Source: a virus
Taxonomy: Duplodnaviria > Caudoviricetes
IMG/VR virus record: IMGVR_UViG_2974621193_000001
Location: 1-64,000 of that record
Reading direction: 5' to 3' (one strand)
DNA length: 64,000 bases
Shown: positions 10,685-38,075 of the stretch, piece after piece
Position numbering within the stretch: position 1 is the stretch's first letter
How the letters are laid out: each line of letters begins with the position of its first letter
Translations under genes and position numbers: made by a program
The notes under the pieces: generated by a model
Told to the model about the DNA's origin: nothing
The model's database searches: none
Seen by the model: the letters and a program-made list of their open reading frames with translations, nothing else

Positions 10685-12449
10685 CATCACACTCGATCCA
10701 ACCGAGTATGGACGGGTCACATTCACTGGACTCATCTCCATACTCGACTCTATCTCCGACCCCGACGACATACCAGACAAGGCTGGCGTAACCGGCGTCA
10801 TCATCTTCAAGCCGAGTGTCGGAGCACTGAAGTTCCTCGGTGCAAGTCCAATGTTCACGCTGATGCTCTCGAGTCGTGAGGTCAACCTAGTCAACGCACA
10901 GGTGGACGAGCAGGGGCGCAAGTACATCAAGCTCGAAGCGAGCTCGGCCCACGCCACGCCAGAGTCCTTCACCTGGACGGCGGTCTTCAGTCTGTCCTAC
11001 AACGGCGTGATGCTGAACCTGCCAGACTGCAAGTTCGCTTTGATGCCCGGCCAGGAGCTCGACCTGTCTACAGTAATCGACGCAAGTGAGGCAACTTACT
11101 ACACGCCGATCCAGCTCTCGGCAGCGGTTGCGGCGCGGGAGGGCGCAGAGGCTGCGCGGGATGAGGCGGTCGAGGCGCGGGATGAGGCGGTCGAAACTGT
11201 GTCGGGCATCCCAACTGAAGTTTTGACAATACCGGTCGCCGACGCCACGTATGCCACGACCGCGCAAGGTAGTAAGGCGGACACTGCCGTGCAACCTGCC
11301 GCGCTCACCAGCGCGGTCGCCCAGCGCGCTCCGGCTCTCACGCTGCCACTGAAACGCCGCGCATTCCACGGCGCCTACTTCAACGCCGCACGAGGCCGTG
11401 CCATCCGTGTCGCGGTCATTGGATCGTCAACATCTGAAGGGGCGGGCACCTCGAACTTGCAGGACCGCTACATTGACCAGTTGGGTATGCGGTTACAGCG
11501 CGGCATGATGCTCAACTCGCCGACGTCGTTGTATCAGCCGCGGTTCCTCCCGACGTGGTGGGCGACCTCCACGTTCACCAATCCGGTGCTGGCGGGGTCG
11601 ACGCGCACGTTCCCCACTGATCCCACCTATACGACGTGGTACGGCCCCGGTGGGCGTGACTGCCGTATCGACTCCGGCGCAACACCCGGGTCGATCACCT
11701 GGACGTTGCAGAACGCACGCCGGGTGCGGGTGTGGCATGTGAAGTCCGCCTCCGGTGGGGTCATCCAGTACACGATCGACGGCACGGTCACCGCCGCCCT
11801 GCCGACATGGAACGCGGCAAGCCTCACCGTCGGACACCGCACCGACTGGATCGACCTGGGCACTCTCGGGTTTCACACCTTCAAGCTCAGCGCGGACGCC
11901 TCCAACGGAGCCACCGTGTGCGGACTGGAAGTGTCGACGGTCGGCTCCGACGCCGAAGAGGCCAACCAGGTACATGTCTACGACTTCGCCCGATCTGGCT
12001 CCGACATCATCACGTCCTCCTACATCAACTCGGCGTGGCGGGACTACCAGCTGGAGTGGCTGAAGACGGTGCAGCCCGACTTGATCATTCTCGGCTTCGG
12101 CTCGAATGCGTACGCCTCGAAGGCTGCGACGCCAGCGTTGATCGAGTCGAATATGCGGGCGTTCATCGCCGACGCGCATACGAAGATGGGGTCGTACCCG
12201 TCGTGGCTGCTGGTGGGCCAGCAGGCGCGGGAGGAGCCGGCGTCGCCGCTCGCGCCGTGGGCCGACTATGTCGCCCGCATGAAGGCCATCGCCGATGACA
12301 CGTCCGGGGTGTCGTTCCTGGACTGGTCGACGCGAGTGCCGTCGTACGCGGCGGACTCCACCTGGTATGCCGACGCCGCACACCTCAATCGGATCGGTCA
12401 TGCGATGGGTGCGGCGATGACAGCGCAGGAACTCATCGGCGCGCTCTGA
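10671..12449 (+). CDS. Virion-associated minor tail/fibre-type protein with C-terminal SGNH esterase domain
   Basis: SGNH blocks IGSSTS, SG, GFGSN, DAAH; N-terminus resembles actinophage minor tail adaptor; ARDEAVE repeat linker. Confidence 0.7.
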   Translation: MPLPDITLDPTEYGRVTFTGLISILDSISDPDDIPDKAGVTGVIIFKPSVGALKFLGASPMFTLMLSSREVNLVNAQVDEQGRKYIKLEASSAHATPESFTWTAVFSLSYNGVMLNLPDCKFALMPGQELDLSTVIDASEATYYTPIQLSAAVAAREGAEAARDEAVEARDEAVETVSGIPTEVLTIPVADATYATTAQGSKADTAVQPAALTSAVAQRAPALTLPLKRRAFHGAYFNAARGRAIRVAVIGSSTSEGAGTSNLQDRYIDQLGMRLQRGMMLNSPTSLYQPRFLPTWWATSTFTNPVLAGSTRTFPTDPTYTTWYGPGGRDCRIDSGATPGSITWTLQNARRVRVWHVKSASGGVIQYTIDGTVTAALPTWNAASLTVGHRTDWIDLGTLGFHTFKLSADASNGATVCGLEVSTVGSDAEEANQVHVYDFARSGSDIITSSYINSAWRDYQLEWLKTVQPDLIILGFGSNAYASKAATPALIESNMRAFIADAHTKMGSYPSWLLVGQQAREEPASPLAPWADYVARMKAIADDTSGVSFLDWSTRVPSYAADSTWYADAAHLNRIGHAMGAAMTAQELIGAL

Positions 12450-12518
12450 TCACCCGCCCATAACCCCGGATATACCGCGCGCGGTTTGTTATTGACTCAT
12501 AATAGAAAGATTGGTGCT

Positions 12519-12824
12519 ATGAAACCAGAGTCGAGACACCCACTGAGGTGTACGTGCAGGACGCAGCCGCTGCTGGCTTACTACGGCAGGAACAACAGAG
12601 GTCGGGCGTTTGTCCACGTAGCTTCATTCAAGAACAAGCGTCCGATCTCGCAGGTCTACACCACTGCACCCATATCAATCTGGTGCCCGTCGTGTGGGAA
12701 GTGGTGGAACATCTTCGTCAAGAATGAGAAGCTCACTGCGGAAGAGCGACAGAGTGCTCCGCCGGTACCCGAGCAAAAATCCAAATCGCGGGTATTGCTG
12801 GACAACCCGCCCGATGACCAGTAA
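12519..12824 (+). CDS. Zinc-ribbon protein (Mu Com-like pattern)
   Basis: LRCTC...WCPSCG Cys pairs; ATG at 12519. Confidence 0.6.
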   Translation: MKPESRHPLRCTCRTQPLLAYYGRNNRGRAFVHVASFKNKRPISQVYTTAPISIWCPSCGKWWNIFVKNEKLTAEERQSAPPVPEQKSKSRVLLDNPPDDQ

Positions 12825-12827
12825 GGT
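12799..12827 (+). promoter_or_regulatory. Putative promoter for capsid genes
   Basis: TGGACA-17-TAAGGT; shares TGCTGGACA with the portal promoter. Confidence 0.45.
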
Positions 12828-12838
12828 TCGGTGACATT

Positions 12839-14062
12839 ATGACAACCGCCACGCTATCGCCCGCGCAGAGGCGGAACTGCGTCTTCGTTCGCAACCTCGG
12901 TGCGCCGGTCAAGACCTACGAAAAGCAGGTCGATGACAAGTCGGGCAACGGAGGCACGGTCGAGGCACTCATCGTGGAGGGCAAGCCGATCTTCCGGAGC
13001 GGCACGTTCTCCGACAGCATGGGCATCGAGCATACGTGGGAAACGCTGCACATGCAGCAGATGGTGGACCACGCAACGCTTCTGTCCAGCCGTGGAATCT
13101 TCGAAGATGTCCCGGTGCGCAAGGGTCATCCCGACTGGGGCGGTCTGTTCAGCGATCCGGTTCGGAACGCTATGGACGAGCTCATCGGGTACATGGGCAA
13201 CTTCCGTACCGAGGAACGGGTCAATCCGGCAGACGGACAGACCTACACATACTTGCTCGCCGACCTCGAGATTCTCGAAGAGACCGCGATCAAGAACATC
13301 AAGTCCGGTCTCTGGCGGAACGTTTCCGCCGAGATCAGCACATACGTCACCAACGGCAATGCCGAGTACTGGCCAGTGATGTACGGGGTGGCCTACGTAG
13401 ACATCCCGGCTGTCGAGGGTCTCAAGGCTCAGCATTCGAAGGCGGCGAACCAATTCAGCATCATCTTGGAGGAAGACATGGGATCGACGCCCAGCAACCC
13501 GAACCCCCCGGTTCCGGCTGAGCAGAACACCACCGGCGAGCAGAACAACCAGGGTGGCAGCAACCACAGCGCCCCGGCTCCGACGCCGACCCCCGCCTTC
13601 GCGTTCAGCATCGGCGGCAAGCAGACCACCGACTTCGCTGCGGTGCAGGCTCACATCAACGGCATCGAGACCGAGAACGCTTCGCTGAAGCAGTTCAAGC
13701 AGGAATCGGTCGAGGCGGGTCGCGCGGCGTTCGTCAAGTCGCTCGTCGAGACCAACCGTGTTCCGGCCACCGAGGAGCAGAAGTTCCTCGACTACGCCAA
13801 GAAGCAGACCGACGAGAGCTTCGCCGAGTGGAAGTCCATGATGGAAGCGATTCCGGTCATGGGCATCGCCACCCCTCAGGGCGCCGGGTTCTCGCAGAGC
13901 CACGATCAGACCCAGCAGACCGACGCCAAGGCGGAGCGCATCGACGTGCTCAAGTCCATCGTCTCGGCTCATCAGATGGGCAACCGGATGACCACCGCCC
14001 AGATCATGGAGCAGGACTCGTACAAGGAGCTCCTGCGACTCGAGCCGACCTTCACCCTCTAG
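12839..14062 (+). CDS. Capsid maturation protease / scaffold fusion (Mu gpI-like)
   Basis: IFRSGTF, VRKGH, NVSAE, GVAYVDIPAVEGL motifs; disordered linker then helical scaffold; position before capsid. Confidence 0.85.
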   Translation: MTTATLSPAQRRNCVFVRNLGAPVKTYEKQVDDKSGNGGTVEALIVEGKPIFRSGTFSDSMGIEHTWETLHMQQMVDHATLLSSRGIFEDVPVRKGHPDWGGLFSDPVRNAMDELIGYMGNFRTEERVNPADGQTYTYLLADLEILEETAIKNIKSGLWRNVSAEISTYVTNGNAEYWPVMYGVAYVDIPAVEGLKAQHSKAANQFSIILEEDMGSTPSNPNPPVPAEQNTTGEQNNQGGSNHSAPAPTPTPAFAFSIGGKQTTDFAAVQAHINGIETENASLKQFKQESVEAGRAAFVKSLVETNRVPATEEQKFLDYAKKQTDESFAEWKSMMEAIPVMGIATPQGAGFSQSHDQTQQTDAKAERIDVLKSIVSAHQMGNRMTTAQIMEQDSYKELLRLEPTFTL

Positions 14063-14098
14063 GTTCGCGGCCACCCTCAAGAAGAAGGAAGAAACACA

Positions 14099-14578
14099 AT
14101 GGCTGATTTCGTCAAGGGCCGCGAAGAGTACGCGGTCCACGGCAAGCGCCAGATCCTCCGGCACGCACACCCCGGCGCGTACACGGTGGTCTCCAAGACC
14201 ATCTCGCACGAGGCCTTCCCGGTGGCCGAGGATGCAGACGGCAATCCCGACTACGTGCTGCAGGAGGGCGAGGTCATGGTCACCCTGACCTCCGGCCCGC
14301 ACGCAGGCAAGTGCGTCCCGTTCCAGGAGTTCCAGGCAGACGGCACGACCGCCTTCACTGACGGTCGCTCGACCCTCGCCAACCTGGTCGGCGTCTGCAA
14401 GGACTACTTCGGCTGGGAGCTCTCCGAGCGCGATGTCGAAGCGGGCATCCTCGATCGGGGTCACCTGGTGCAGAACTGGTGCACCGTTCGTGATCCAGAC
14501 GGGAACCGGGTCACGATGACCAACGCGGTAGCCGACGCGCTCCGTAGCAAGAAGAACCTCGACATCCTCTTCTCGTAA
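14099..14578 (+). CDS. Capsid decoration protein
   Basis: Position between protease and capsid gene, 159 aa, highly expressed codon bias. Confidence 0.65.
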   Translation: MADFVKGREEYAVHGKRQILRHAHPGAYTVVSKTISHEAFPVAEDADGNPDYVLQEGEVMVTLTSGPHAGKCVPFQEFQADGTTAFTDGRSTLANLVGVCKDYFGWELSERDVEAGILDRGHLVQNWCTVRDPDGNRVTMTNAVADALRSKKNLDILFS

Positions 14579-14590
14579 GGAGACGAACAA

Positions 14591-15790
14591 GTGACCGCAT
14601 CACTGGGCATGTTCAACAAGCCCCAGCCCACTGCCCACGGCGCGCAGCCGCTGGACAAGCTCATCCGCAAGGAGGTGGCGCTCGGCGTCATCAAGGAGAT
14701 CGTCAAGCCCGAGGACCACCTCGGCCTGACCCTCTTTCCCTTCAAGGACGTGCCGACCGATGACTACATCTTCTCGTACGTCAAGGGTCTGACCACCGGC
14801 CTGGCCCCCGCCATCGCCGAGTCGGCCGAGTCGGAACTGGCCCAGAAGGACAGCGGCCTGGCCAACCAGGGTCGCGCGTCGATCATCGACTGGCGACTCA
14901 AGGACCACTACGACGCCGCCGACGTGCAGCGTTTCCTGGACCTGCAGCTGCTCGCCGAGGCGAACCAGTTCGGCCCCTACGGTCTGCCCAACACCCTGCT
15001 GGGTGACATCAACCAGCTGCCGCAGCGGATGCAGCGCGACACCGAAGAGCGTCGCCGCCGCCTCGACAACCGAGCCGAATGGCTCATCATGCAGTCGCTG
15101 TCCAACGGCGGCATCGCTTACAACGACGGGAACATCAAGTTCTCCGTCGACTGGAAGCGTCCGGTCGATCAGCAGGCACAGACGCCGGCCTCGGGCACCT
15201 ACGCCAGCACCACTCACGATCCCATCGGGGACATCAACAAGATCAAGCGACTGATCTACAATCGCTACGGCGTGCTGATCACTCGCGCGATCTGCTCGAA
15301 CAAGTTCCTGTTGAGCCTCATCAACTCGGACAAGTTCATCCTGCGTGCGGGTCTCGGCACCGCGTCCAACTCGGGCATCACCCAGTCGGACGTGCCGTAC
15401 CTGATCAACGGCTGGGGTCCGCAGGTCGCCATCGACATCGTCGAGCAGCAGACCGGCATCAAGTTCATCGAGTACGATTCGGGCTACCGCAGCAAGCCGG
15501 ACTTCGCTCAGGGGCCGGTCACCTTCAATCGGTACCTGCCCGAGAACCGGGTGATCTTCCTGCCGGACGACAACGCGATGGCCGAGTACGACTCCTCGGA
15601 CATCGGCCTCGGCAAGATGCTGACCAGCCCGCACAGCATGGGCAACGGGTCCGCAGGGTTCTACATGTGGGAGCAGGACACCACGGACCCCTGGGGCAAG
15701 AACGTGGGCACCGGGATCAAGATGTTCCCGCTATTTCCTCACATGGAATTGACTTACACGATGGATGTCACGCTCCCGGCCGACCTCTGA
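14591..15790 (+). CDS. Major capsid protein (lambda gpE-like family)
   Basis: 399 aa, extreme GC3 bias, gpE-like features (RRRLDNRAEWLIMQSL, VDWKRP, DPIGDI). Confidence 0.9.
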   Translation: MTASLGMFNKPQPTAHGAQPLDKLIRKEVALGVIKEIVKPEDHLGLTLFPFKDVPTDDYIFSYVKGLTTGLAPAIAESAESELAQKDSGLANQGRASIIDWRLKDHYDAADVQRFLDLQLLAEANQFGPYGLPNTLLGDINQLPQRMQRDTEERRRRLDNRAEWLIMQSLSNGGIAYNDGNIKFSVDWKRPVDQQAQTPASGTYASTTHDPIGDINKIKRLIYNRYGVLITRAICSNKFLLSLINSDKFILRAGLGTASNSGITQSDVPYLINGWGPQVAIDIVEQQTGIKFIEYDSGYRSKPDFAQGPVTFNRYLPENRVIFLPDDNAMAEYDSSDIGLGKMLTSPHSMGNGSAGFYMWEQDTTDPWGKNVGTGIKMFPLFPHMELTYTMDVTLPADL

Positions 15791-16365
15791 TTCAGGTTGT
15801 GCGGTGTTTCCATTTATGTTACTATCAATAAATGGAAACACCGCAACCGCCACAGGTACCAGAGGCCTTTAGAGTTCCACCAAAGTCAATTCCGGCTTTG
15901 GTACAAAAGAATACAGTAAGTCAGAATGGTCATCGAGTGGGTCGTCGGCCAGTAATGTTTGACGACGACGGACTGAAGCCGTGTAGTTCTTGTAAGGAAC
16001 GACTCCCCAGGGAGTCGTTCGACAGAAATAGGCGCATGGCGAGCGGTTATGCTTCGCAATGCAAAACCTGCTTCAGAAACAAGGGTTACACAGACGAGGC
16101 GTCACGCTCGGAGTACAGGTTCCAAAGAAAATACGGAATCAGTATGCAAGAGTATGATCGAATGTTTGATGACCAGTGCGGGAGATGCAAGCTGTGTGGA
16201 CAGTCTCCCGAGGGGTCGAGGTATAGCAAGTTATATATCGACCACAATCACCAGACCGGCAAGGTTCGCGGACTTCTTTGTATCGAATGTAATTTCGGTC
16301 TAGGCAAGTTCAAGGACAATGCAGAATTGCTGGACAGAGCGAGTGATTACGTTCGCCAAGATGGG
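15764..16365 (+). mobile_element. Free-standing homing endonuclease cassette inserted in the 3' end of the capsid gene
   Basis: DVTLPADL-stop encoded twice (15764-15790 and 16366-16392) with synonymous differences; AT-richer interior. Confidence 0.75.
15797..15844 (+). promoter_or_regulatory. Promoter plus hairpin sequestering the endonuclease start codon
   Basis: TTGTGC-17-TACTAT with TG extension; perfect 17-bp inverted repeat 15801-15817/15828-15844 covering ATG 15832. Confidence 0.75.
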
Positions 16366-16392
16366 GACGTGACCCTCCCCGCCGATCTCTGA
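15832..16392 (+). CDS. Endonuclease VII-family (His-Me finger) homing endonuclease
   Basis: KYGIS..EYDRMF..Q.GRCKLCG, IDHNHQTGKVRGLLCIECNFGLG; N-terminal CxxC...CxxC. Confidence 0.92.
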   Translation: METPQPPQVPEAFRVPPKSIPALVQKNTVSQNGHRVGRRPVMFDDDGLKPCSSCKERLPRESFDRNRRMASGYASQCKTCFRNKGYTDEASRSEYRFQRKYGISMQEYDRMFDDQCGRCKLCGQSPEGSRYSKLYIDHNHQTGKVRGLLCIECNFGLGKFKDNAELLDRASDYVRQDGDVTLPADL

Positions 16393-16413
16393 TCGGGAAA
16401 GGAGTAAAACGAC

Positions 16414-16608
16414 ATGGCCTCCAAGAGTACCGTCGTCGTGAAGAAGAAGGGCGCCCGAGGTGGCGTCAACCCCGGAACCGCAGGCACCGGCGCAGGGCTC
16501 CTGCCCTACGGTGCACAGACGGGGGGACAGTCCAGCGCCGATCCGGTCAAGTCGGTGAAGGCGACGCAGGACAAGAACCGTCGGGCCATCGGCTACGGCG
16601 AGCGCTGA
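16414..16608 (+). CDS. Hypothetical virion-region protein (64 aa)
   Basis: SD GAAAGGAG; GC3 bias. Confidence 0.7.
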   Translation: MASKSTVVVKKKGARGGVNPGTAGTGAGLLPYGAQTGGQSSADPVKSVKATQDKNRRAIGYGER

Positions 16609-35811: not shown

Positions 35812-37808
35812 TGGCTACAGGGTTTGGCAACTGGGGCAACAGCGTCAAGGCTCACAGCGTTCTGCGTGAGATTGCCAAGAAAGAAGTAGAGCGCCTACGC
35901 CCTTCATCCCGGCTGGCCGAGGTGACCTCGATCATCCCCGCCGAGAAGAAGGTGCTGGTCAGGTTCGTTGGCGAGTCCAACGTTGTGCCTGTGCCGTATA
36001 CTTCTACTGCGCCTGCGAACGTGGGTCAGTGGGTTCGGATCGGTGGCACGACTCACGATCGCTATGTCGAAGATGTCATCGGCACTACGCTCACCGAGGC
36101 TCGGCTGGAGACGGCCGAGGGTCGGATCGGCTCGCTCATGGAGAGCGTTATCGGCGAGGGCTGGGAAGACGAAGACGACGGCGAGCCCGGTACGTTCACT
36201 GGTATCATCAGTCAGTACTTTGGCGGTATCGAGGAGAACGCGACCGAGGCCCTCGGCCTGGCCGGACAGGCAGACACTAAGGCGGGCCAGGCTCAGACGA
36301 CAGCGGAGAACGCACAGACCACGGCCGAAGGTGCGCAGACCACTGCAGACAACGCGAACACTACCGCAGGCCAGGCGCAGCAGACTGCTAGTGATGCTAG
36401 CGCTGCTGTCGGTGGTGCAGTCACGGCAGCCGAGGACGCCGACGAGAAGGCAACCCTCGCGCAGCAGATAGCCCAGCACATCACCGACAATATCAATGCG
36501 CTCGGTGAAGGCGTTGCGGCTGGTACTGCAGGTGTCGCACAGGTCTTCGATACGATCGCTGGCATCTTCACGACAGCAAGCGAGGCGCAGCAGAAAGCGG
36601 TGGATGCACAGACCGCACTGCAGAATCTGATTAATCAGAACGAAGGCGCGGCAGCAGGCGGGCGGTCCGGGCAGGACAACTTCGACCGACCGAACTCGTC
36701 CACCCTTGGTACGGGCTGGATTTCCACTGCGTACGGAAATATTCGAGCGAGCATTGATTCTAAAGGTAGAGTTAACTTTCCGTTTGCCACTGACCCCAGC
36801 GGGGACGAGGGTGGTCTCATCTACCACCAGTGGGCTGGGGAGACTTCGGTTGGTGATTATTTCCAGAGCACTATTGTTTTCGGAACTTCGTTCAGCAACA
36901 ACGGCAGTCCGCTGGCTTATGTGTTCAATCGCTGGGATGGACTGTTCGCCGCAGACAACGGCGTCAACACCAAGCCACTCAACTGCTGGGCAGTGCGTAT
37001 TACACGCGCAGGTGGTCTCACTCTCTATCGAGTTGTCAATGGAGTCATGACATCGGTGGGCACGAGTGACGTAGCAGATATCAAATCAGGTGATGCCATC
37101 TCCCTTCGCTGCGGATCGCTCGCTGGTCCTGGCAACATCTCGGTCGTGGTCAACGGTCAGGTTGAGATTGCTTACACTGACCCCGGCACAGGGATGATCG
37201 GTGCGGACTACCGCAAGCATGGTTTCTTCGGTTTCGCCGAGAATCAGGGCCTCCTAGGCTGGCAGCAGCCTGCGAGTGTCGCGTCGTACAACTGGTCAGA
37301 CATTCCCGGCGGAAGTATCGTGCTCGGCAAGGGGTTCCGCTTCGCCAGAACTACGGTTGCCAACCTTACTCAGGTGGCAAATGCGCAGGTGCCGACGACC
37401 ACATTCCAGACTGCGGTTTACAGTGAGTCGTGCAAACCACTCGCCGACTCTACCCTCAAAGCTGCACGCGGCGAGTTCGCCATACCCTTCGAGGGGTGGT
37501 GGGACTTCGAGTTCGGCTTCTATGGCTACACCCTCAGCCTCTCGGCTGGTGCGTCTACTGTTCTGGATCCTGTACTCTACAACGGGCAGGGCGCACTCTC
37601 GACTACCATCCCCTTGCGCATGTCGAAGATCACCAACGGCGGCAGTTCCGCAGCGCGCACGCTGATACAAGAGGTCGCCAAGTTCAGGAAGTACTGCCTC
37701 GTGGGCGAGCGCGTAGCTCCTGGCTGGGGTGCGCAACGTCTCGACTACATGACCGCAGATGCAGGTGGACACACCTGTTACTTCAGTGGAGTTCTACTAT
37801 CACCCTAG
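35811..37808 (+). CDS. Minor tail protein / putative receptor-binding protein
   Basis: Heptad AQTTA repeats, DNFDRPNS...LG lectin-like domain, beta-rich C-terminus. Confidence 0.75.
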   Translation: MATGFGNWGNSVKAHSVLREIAKKEVERLRPSSRLAEVTSIIPAEKKVLVRFVGESNVVPVPYTSTAPANVGQWVRIGGTTHDRYVEDVIGTTLTEARLETAEGRIGSLMESVIGEGWEDEDDGEPGTFTGIISQYFGGIEENATEALGLAGQADTKAGQAQTTAENAQTTAEGAQTTADNANTTAGQAQQTASDASAAVGGAVTAAEDADEKATLAQQIAQHITDNINALGEGVAAGTAGVAQVFDTIAGIFTTASEAQQKAVDAQTALQNLINQNEGAAAGGRSGQDNFDRPNSSTLGTGWISTAYGNIRASIDSKGRVNFPFATDPSGDEGGLIYHQWAGETSVGDYFQSTIVFGTSFSNNGSPLAYVFNRWDGLFAADNGVNTKPLNCWAVRITRAGGLTLYRVVNGVMTSVGTSDVADIKSGDAISLRCGSLAGPGNISVVVNGQVEIAYTDPGTGMIGADYRKHGFFGFAENQGLLGWQQPASVASYNWSDIPGGSIVLGKGFRFARTTVANLTQVANAQVPTTTFQTAVYSESCKPLADSTLKAARGEFAIPFEGWWDFEFGFYGYTLSLSAGASTVLDPVLYNGQGALSTTIPLRMSKITNGGSSAARTLIQEVAKFRKYCLVGERVAPGWGAQRLDYMTADAGGHTCYFSGVLLSP

Positions 37809-37817
37809 GAGGGTGCA

Positions 37818-38036
37818 GTGATCGAACAGAAAACAGTTTACTTCGACAGTCTGCCAGGCGTGGCGATTCGTCTGACACGTGGGCACGAAGAGTTTGGAGA
37901 TGACTTCATCACCGCCGAAGCCTTTGACGAGAACATGAACCTCATACCCGGAGGAGGCGGCGGATTCCGTGGACCTTCGCCCCATCCGCCGGTGATCGTG
38001 GAGCAGGAGCCAGAGCCCGAGTCCCCGGGAGGTTGA
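37818..38036 (+). CDS. Hypothetical protein (72 aa)
   Basis: SD GGAGG before GTG. Confidence 0.65.
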   Translation: MIEQKTVYFDSLPGVAIRLTRGHEEFGDDFITAEAFDENMNLIPGGGGGFRGPSPHPPVIVEQEPEPESPGG

Positions 38037-38075
38037 ACCAGAGGAAGTGATGTACGCCAGCGAAGAGGGCAATGC

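Follow-up and report, generated by a model that had tools for sequence, protein, structure and literature searches.

Two groups of mobile elements have been described in fungi that bring with them a new 3′ end for the gene they invade. In the WHO elements of the yeast aldolase gene FBA1, the mobile unit consists of a nuclease gene together with an upstream 3′ end of the target gene which confers resistance, the old 3′ end being displaced and serving as homology, and identity falls sharply at the position of the cut; allele-specific cleavage has also been shown for these elements (Coughlan et al. 2020, PMC7282813). The mORFs of fungal mitochondria, found in atp6 of Allomyces and in atp6, atp9, cox2 and nad3 of Glomus (PMC3630166), are likewise accompanied by an inserted foreign C-terminal piece and a displaced native one, designated C*-terminal. 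Here, we describe a locus of this kind in a tailed phage (Duplodnaviria; Caudoviricetes). In positions 1 to 64,000 of the IMG/VR record IMGVR_UViG_2974621193_000001, the whole 64,000-nucleotide (nt) stretch that we refer to as the window, a predicted homing endonuclease gene (HEG) of the Endo VII/DHHRN type lies behind the major capsid gene, and the last codons of that gene are present twice in two different spellings. We consider it highly probable that this is a free-standing homing-endonuclease cassette which substitutes a 3′ end of its own for that of the target gene.

The free-standing HEGs known from phage T4 occupy intergenic positions and cut at distances of up to hundreds of base pairs (bp), and we know of no duplicated gene end among them. 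F-CphI, an enzyme of the DHHRN family, reportedly homes collaboratively with the psbA intron. Expression of the T4 enzymes has been reviewed (PMC2988022, which tabulates insertion sites such as 60.1/39): on read-through mRNA, I-TevI, segB and mobE are kept silent by a hairpin, and a promoter inside the structure gives rise to a translatable transcript. The F-CphI report (PMC6083498) presents DHHRN as an experimentally supported family of homing endonucleases. Both the enzyme family and the strategy of replacing a gene end are already known, and a limited, incomplete search of the literature returned no published example of that strategy in phages.

The window is part of a complete phage record of 75,687 bp with terminal repeats, and megablast places it among the Gordonia phages of the genus Montyvirus. 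Gene order at the locus is the usual one of protease, decoration protein, capsid and 64-residue head-tail connector, and the capsid gene, the insert and the connector gene are all on the + strand. The major capsid open reading frame (ORF; 14591-15790) matches PF03864 (Phage_cap_E, E 1.2e-15) and ends ATG GAT GTC ACG CTC CCG GCC GAC CTC TGA, and the connector gene occupies 16414-16608 (phrog_7074, E 2.5e-40). Between them is an intact ORF of 186 codons (15832-16392), across which the GC content drops from about 0.63 to 0.48 and which ends GGG GAC GTG ACC CTC CCC GCC GAT CTC TGA. Both ORF ends encode DVTLPADL-stop with synonymous differences in 5/8 codons, exactly as a first-pass annotation of this DNA had described them. 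A repeat search registers the two ends as a direct repeat of 29 nt (15763-15791 and 16365-16393; 83% identity, spacing 602), and the two copies of the capsid end share at most 7 consecutive identical nt. Relative to the empty site, 602 nt have been gained net and about 30 nt replaced.

The form of the locus without the nuclease can be seen in its relatives. All 92 related records identified by megablast (92/92) lack the endonuclease, and the query matched them in two pieces. Twelve HEG-free alleles were compared, six from Montyvirus and six from more distant genera, the relatives being Diabla, Jellybones, PokyPuppy, Woes and eight from IMG/VR. The right-hand spelling, GAC GTG ACC CTC CCC GCC GAT CTC TGA, is found exactly in Diabla, Jellybones, L009, L010 and L011, the capsid end of PokyPuppy is three bases off it, and none of the 12 relatives carries the left-hand spelling (GAT GTC ACG). 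Downstream of the capsid end, both Diabla and PokyPuppy have the ribosome site and connector start found in the window from 16393 onward. When searched with BLAST, Diabla 15492-15520 maps twice in the window, once to each copy; 16365-16392 and the sequence beyond it match Diabla exactly, and neither the spacing nor the sequence of 16393-16608, which holds the native intergenic region, its ribosome site and the connector gene, has been disturbed.

Because the right copy and everything downstream of it correspond base for base to the capsid end and intergenic region of HEG-free relatives, the DVTLPADL repeat is evidently not due to chance. Furthermore, since the HEG-free Montyvirus alleles carry the right-hand spelling and identical downstream DNA, the comparison identifies the right copy (16365-16392; the last base of codon 391, codons 392-399 and TGA) as the ancestral capsid end, now displaced. 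The first-pass annotation had predicted a single ending, GAC GTG ACC CTC CCC, in endonuclease-free relatives, and had named the GAT GTC ACG ending in such relatives as an outcome that would speak against it; the five relatives with the former and the absence of the latter from all 12 agree with that prediction. Its broader proposals, that an element inserted into the last capsid codons and supplies a working 3′ end, and that the original end was captured in frame by the nuclease ORF, are borne out by the empty sites in the 92 records and by the match of the right copy to HEG-free capsid ends, respectively.

The left-hand ending, which is the working end of the capsid gene, belongs to a longer recoded block. 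Compared with Diabla, the capsid gene has 17 mismatches. Twelve of these fall within 15733-15784, and the remaining 1140 nt, which belong to the native part of the gene (14591-15732; codon 1 to the second base of codon 381), contain five. There is no mismatch in the 656 nt preceding the block (15077-15732), and the 290 nt beyond the right junction have two. Identity to Diabla is 99.6% outside the block and 77% within it, and the Poisson probability of at least 12 changes in 58 nt at the background rate is 1.2e-16. All of the block changes (12/12) are synonymous and they affect 11/20 codons (P about 3e-8 for random substitutions), with the last 20 residues of the capsid protein unchanged despite 12/52 nt differing. 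The recoded 3′ end as a whole comprises these 20 codons and TGA (15733-15790) and includes the left repeat copy (15764-15790), and six of its changes (15733-15760) lie upstream of the duplicated eight codons. The first-pass annotation had placed a switch to AT-rich codons at about 15731 (CTA TTT CCT GAA TTG ACT), and AT-richer codons are indeed found from 15733 onward (CTA TTT CCT .. TTG ACT), but the GAA in this series is unchanged and also present in Diabla.

The composition of the block is likewise distinctive. GC at third codon positions is 0.65 in the recoded tract, compared with 0.92 over the remaining capsid codons (14591-15732) and 0.80 in the same 20 codons of Diabla, and the insert has a GC content of 0.48 against 0.63 for the capsid gene. 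The tract differs at no fewer than 9/57 nt from every allele found; among its states ACG, GTC, ACG and CCG are common to other genera, and CTA, TTT, TTG, ACT and GAT are unique. Given 12 synonymous changes in 52 nt, as against none in the preceding 656 nt and two in the following 290 nt, the pattern indicates that the recoded block arrived together with the insert and did not evolve in place. Low-GC relatives of the capsid module are present in metagenomes (L018 and L019, from IMG/VR 3300015371, with GC of 0.48-0.49), and a donor of this kind is plausible. L018 shares the gene order and has a near-identical capsid C-terminus, and L019 ends inside the capsid gene; the Gordonia phages with which the two were compared have a GC content of 59-63%.

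The protein encoded by the insert can be assigned with some precision. It matches the Endo VII domain PF02945 over residues 96-175 (82.8 bits versus a cut-off of 23.6) as well as phrog_2633 (E 5e-42), it is alignable to T4 Endo VII and Hpy99I, and it has an N-terminal CxxC..CxxC finger formed by C51, C54, C77 and C80. In an alignment of 17 sequences, D137, H138, H140, R146 and N154 are invariant, as are the four zinc-binding cysteines C119, C122, C150 and C153, and the AlphaFold2 (AF2) model built with 17 sequences has a mean predicted local distance difference test score (pLDDT) of 80.8, residues 41-178 forming the confidently modelled core. We class the nuclease proper (residues 1-178, 15832-16364) as a predicted homing endonuclease of the Endo VII/DHHRN type on the basis of these matches and conserved residues. 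Three start codons can be considered, namely ATG 15832, TTG 15904 and the GTG at 15937 used in the database call (151 residues, P0001), and a Shine-Dalgarno sequence precedes none of the three. As conservation in the homologues P0003 and P0004 extends upstream of GTG 15937, ATG 15832 appears the likeliest start, TTG 15904 is a possible one and the public 151-residue gene call is probably too short. A perfect 11-bp hairpin with a 2-nt loop also lies within the nuclease codons at 15997-16020 (ERLPRESF), and may be there by chance.

This layout recurs for Endo VII genes at the ends of capsid genes. We scanned 79 IMG/VR loci with Endo VII relatives, and in a tail-anchored scan none of the 79 had a nuclease tail identical to the end of the upstream gene. 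A frame-free scan of the same loci gave one clear case, L031 (IMGVR_UViG_3300022187_000570), a low-GC marine/metagenomic phage unrelated to the window, with the layout at 1116-2951; a second, weak match was discarded. The major head gene of L031 (phrog_267, E 1e-63) ends ILRAEAIVTARVNIA-stop, its Endo VII gene (2447-2920) differs from the nuclease of the window, and a second copy of the head-gene end, KILRPEAIVTARVNIA-stop, straddles the nuclease stop and continues beyond it. The last 15 codons of the head gene differ from the downstream copy at 12/15, and the displaced native end amounts to 16 codons. Both the ILRPE motif and the GGAGG-ATG context of the displaced copy recur in relatives without the HEG, among them L104 (91% identity), and the downstream copy is thus the native one in L031 as well. 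Five contigs from different samples carry the same capsid allele, recoded end and insert start, and 4/5 include the nuclease gene, L103 being cut by the contig end. Klebsiella phage IL33 (NC_047782.1; L020:1498-2001) was considered as another case and rejected, as it has no duplication. As annotated, its Endo VII gene shares 38 nt with the end of the tail tubular protein A gene, which probably reflects a mis-set start, an internal ATG after AAGGAGG being likelier.

We propose that the mobile unit comprises the recoded last 20 capsid codons and stop (15733-15790), a structured spacer and the Endo VII/DHHRN nuclease gene (15832-16364). In HEG-free relatives, the nuclease would cut the conserved 3′ end of the capsid gene near codon 391/392, and the break would be repaired from an HEG-carrying genome. 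On the left, some ~30 nt would be resected and recopied from the donor, so that the recipient acquires the nuclease gene along with a gene end in the donor spelling; on the right, the crossover would be immediate, such that the last eight codons of the recipient persist downstream of the nuclease as the right homology arm. The capsid protein would stay unchanged throughout. By analogy with the WHO elements, the recoded capsid end should be resistant to cleavage, its divergent spelling (12/52 positions) preventing the rebuilt site from being cut again, and the same divergence would block recombination between the copies, so that the element is not deleted.

The spacer suggests how the nuclease may be kept in check. 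A perfect 18-bp inverted repeat (15800-15817 and 15828-15845, with the loop at 15818-15827) forms a predicted start-codon hairpin at 15797-15848, detected by the repeat search and by fold statistics, with ATG 15832 in its 3′ arm. The fold of the 91 nt from 15780 to 15870 has an energy of -39.9 kcal/mol (z -6.7), and 0/200 shuffles were as good. By burying the ATG, this hairpin probably silences the nuclease on capsid read-through mRNA. Within the loop, 6 nt before the ATG, is TACTAT (15820-15825), which fits the actinobacterial TANNNT pattern, is preceded by TG and has TTGTGC (15797-15802) 17 nt upstream; a leaderless transcript escaping the hairpin may start from here. The hairpin was not called as an intrinsic terminator, as it lacks a T-run, and a consensus terminator scan found none.

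The comparison with relatives establishes the anatomy of the insertion, the empty sites and the identity of the native copy; the cut site, the immunity of the recoded end and the mode of regulation are inferred. A number of points weigh against the cassette interpretation and need to be considered together. The cut site and the resistance are exactly those parts of it that we infer, and only 1/79 loci scanned shows the same layout. An exact search of IMG/VR for the recoded tract found no copy, and a distant blastn search of the phage collection found no donor for the insert. Repeated homing would be expected to raise diversity at the capsid 3′ end, and no such signature was found among seven HEG-free alleles, in which the last 60-nt window of the gene ranks 8th of 20 windows for nucleotide diversity (14th within Montyvirus); the invasion of the capsid end looks like one recent event. 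Among 5.8 billion proteins the best foreign full-length matches to the nuclease have 42-45% identity, and no homologue above 45% was found there, in the phage collection, in IMG/VR or in GTDB genomes, apart from one short local match (P0012, 57% identity over 43% of the query); every tblastn match in phages was below 60% identity. The start codon of the nuclease is uncertain, and a scan of 15600-16600 for consensus sigma-70 promoters gave no site.

Other histories could be imagined for the same arrangement. A tandem duplication of the capsid end, followed by divergence in place and later insertion of the nuclease between the copies, would be expected to produce the same final gene order, but in-place divergence would have to account for 12 changes in 52 nt next to 656 nt with none (P 1e-16), for the six changes at 15733-15760 that lie upstream of the duplicated part, and for a tract whose composition is like that of the insert and unlike that of the host; we regard it as extremely improbable. 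Domestication of the Endo VII protein as a resolvase or regulator that serves the phage, and is not selfish, is only slightly easier to entertain and still very unlikely. T4 Endo VII is itself a resolvase and an 18-bp inverted repeat adjoins the gene in the window, but the nuclease is missing from 92/92 relatives, including one with a capsid module that is 98.7% identical, its composition is foreign, its N-terminal zinc-finger architecture is that of the free-standing HEG clade, and Diabla, the closest relative, has its own RusA-like resolvase. Nor do we find support for the suggestion in the first-pass annotation that the capsid-derived peptide tethers the nuclease to virions. Lacking a stop before the junction, the nuclease ORF runs on into the capsid remnant and uses the capsid TGA, and it is this intact, in-frame fusion that would allow a functional tail docking the enzyme to procapsids or virions. 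Against this, the AF2 model places the last helix at residues 164-177 and leaves residues 178-186, within which the tail (179-186) lies, as a low-confidence coil (block pLDDT about 55), and the homologues end 5-12 residues past the conserved Tyr173 in unrelated sequences. The L031 nuclease reads its remnant in another frame (+1), stopping at a TGA inside the remnant, and with an in-frame chance of 1 in 3 the capture of the tail therefore looks accidental. The eight-residue capsid tail looks like an incidental by-product, an accident of frame, and a docking function is scarcely to be expected.

A further explanation, that the recoding serves mainly the stability of the element or an RNA structure and not evasion of the nuclease, deserves more weight, although we think it the less likely account; it is compatible with a gene-end replacement cassette. 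The 7-nt limit on identical runs means that repeats so diverged cannot recombine the cassette out. There is also a perfect 11-nt long-range helix between the recoded capsid codons (15745-15755, GAA TTG ACT) and HEG codons 18-21 (15883-15893), found by an inverted-repeat search and used in the minimum free energy fold of 15725-15915 (-62.6 kcal/mol, z -5.0). This helix is nested around the start-codon hairpin, is specific to the recoded spelling and would not form with the ancestral one; in this view it would gate expression of the nuclease. Set against these points, the helix spans only 3/11 of the changed codons, its chance probability is, according to the search space assumed, about 1e-3 to 0.1, and allele-specific cleavage is the selected property in the WHO precedent. 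The helix nevertheless hints that the recoded tract and the 5′ end of the nuclease gene are one co-evolved unit. A more speculative extension, which we think rather unlikely, would place the recoded codons under a triple constraint from the capsid C-terminus, nuclease evasion and pairing with nuclease mRNA, such that capsid expression gates the nuclease and release comes only from a leaderless transcript starting in the loop, with phage capsid ends being in general a recurrent niche for such modules. If true, this would make the element an integrated, self-regulating module for gene-end replacement.

The block from protease to capsid (12510-15791) is 98.7% identical to Diabla. Two stretches of the window, 11009-12510 (the C-terminal part of a glycoside hydrolase-like gene) and 36076-38070 (in the minor-tail region), have no megablast match in Diabla, and these represent ordinary mosaicism. 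An AT-rich ORF at 12486-12824 was considered as another insertion and rejected, as it is the homologue of Diabla gene 12. An assembly artefact was also rejected, the genome being complete with terminal repeats and both junctions lying in continuous sequence matched by relatives. The AF2 model of the capsid protein, intended to locate its C-terminus, had a pLDDT of 37.7 and gave no placement.

If the cassette interpretation is correct, a phage homing endonuclease needs neither intron nor intein to enter an essential structural gene at its coding end; it can do so by bringing a spare, differently spelled end. The strategy established in fungal mitochondria and yeast nuclei would then also be used by actinobacteriophages, and by nucleases of the Endo VII/DHHRN family, and this may explain odd runs of synonymous codons and orphan scraps of gene ends beside phage nuclease genes. 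It also carries a warning for annotation, in that the C-terminal residues of such a nuclease and the last codons of the capsid gene can be of displaced or foreign origin. With Diabla as an HEG-free partner at 98.7% identity that shares its laboratory host, the system should be experimentally tractable, and it offers a clean example with empty-site controls.

Among phage systems, F-CphI has the same catalytic domain with the conserved D-H-H-R-N residues, and it too is a free-standing phage gene adjoining an essential or conserved target. It differs in lying downstream of an intron-containing psbA gene and in its low identity to the nuclease of the window, and the abstract of its description does not mention a duplicated gene end. 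The seg and mob genes of T4 resemble the present element in being free-standing phage HEGs with co-conversion of the flanks, and in having an RNA hairpin that occludes initiation with a possible promoter yielding a short transcript that escapes it. In the window, however, the hairpin buries the ATG itself and there is no Shine-Dalgarno sequence, and the transcript would be leaderless.

The layout itself matches that of the fungal elements. As in the mORFs, an endonuclease ORF is flanked by a C-terminal duplication in which the native copy is as in close relatives and the inserted copy is divergent, and mORFs too are sometimes in phase with the adjoining pieces. The mORF enzymes are, however, of the LAGLIDADG or GIY-YIG type and reside in an organelle genome, where in-phase fusion of the mORF to the gene upstream is common, whereas the capsid gene of the window keeps its own stop and the nuclease is fused to the downstream remnant. 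The WHO elements share with the window a sharp break in identity within the target gene, from 99% to 85% in WHO and from 99.6% to 77% here. Their nuclease is an intein-like LAGLIDADG/zinc-finger protein acting in a eukaryotic nucleus, they replace about 400 bp compared with 58 bp in the window, and they form clusters by repeated homing, of which none was seen in this phage family.

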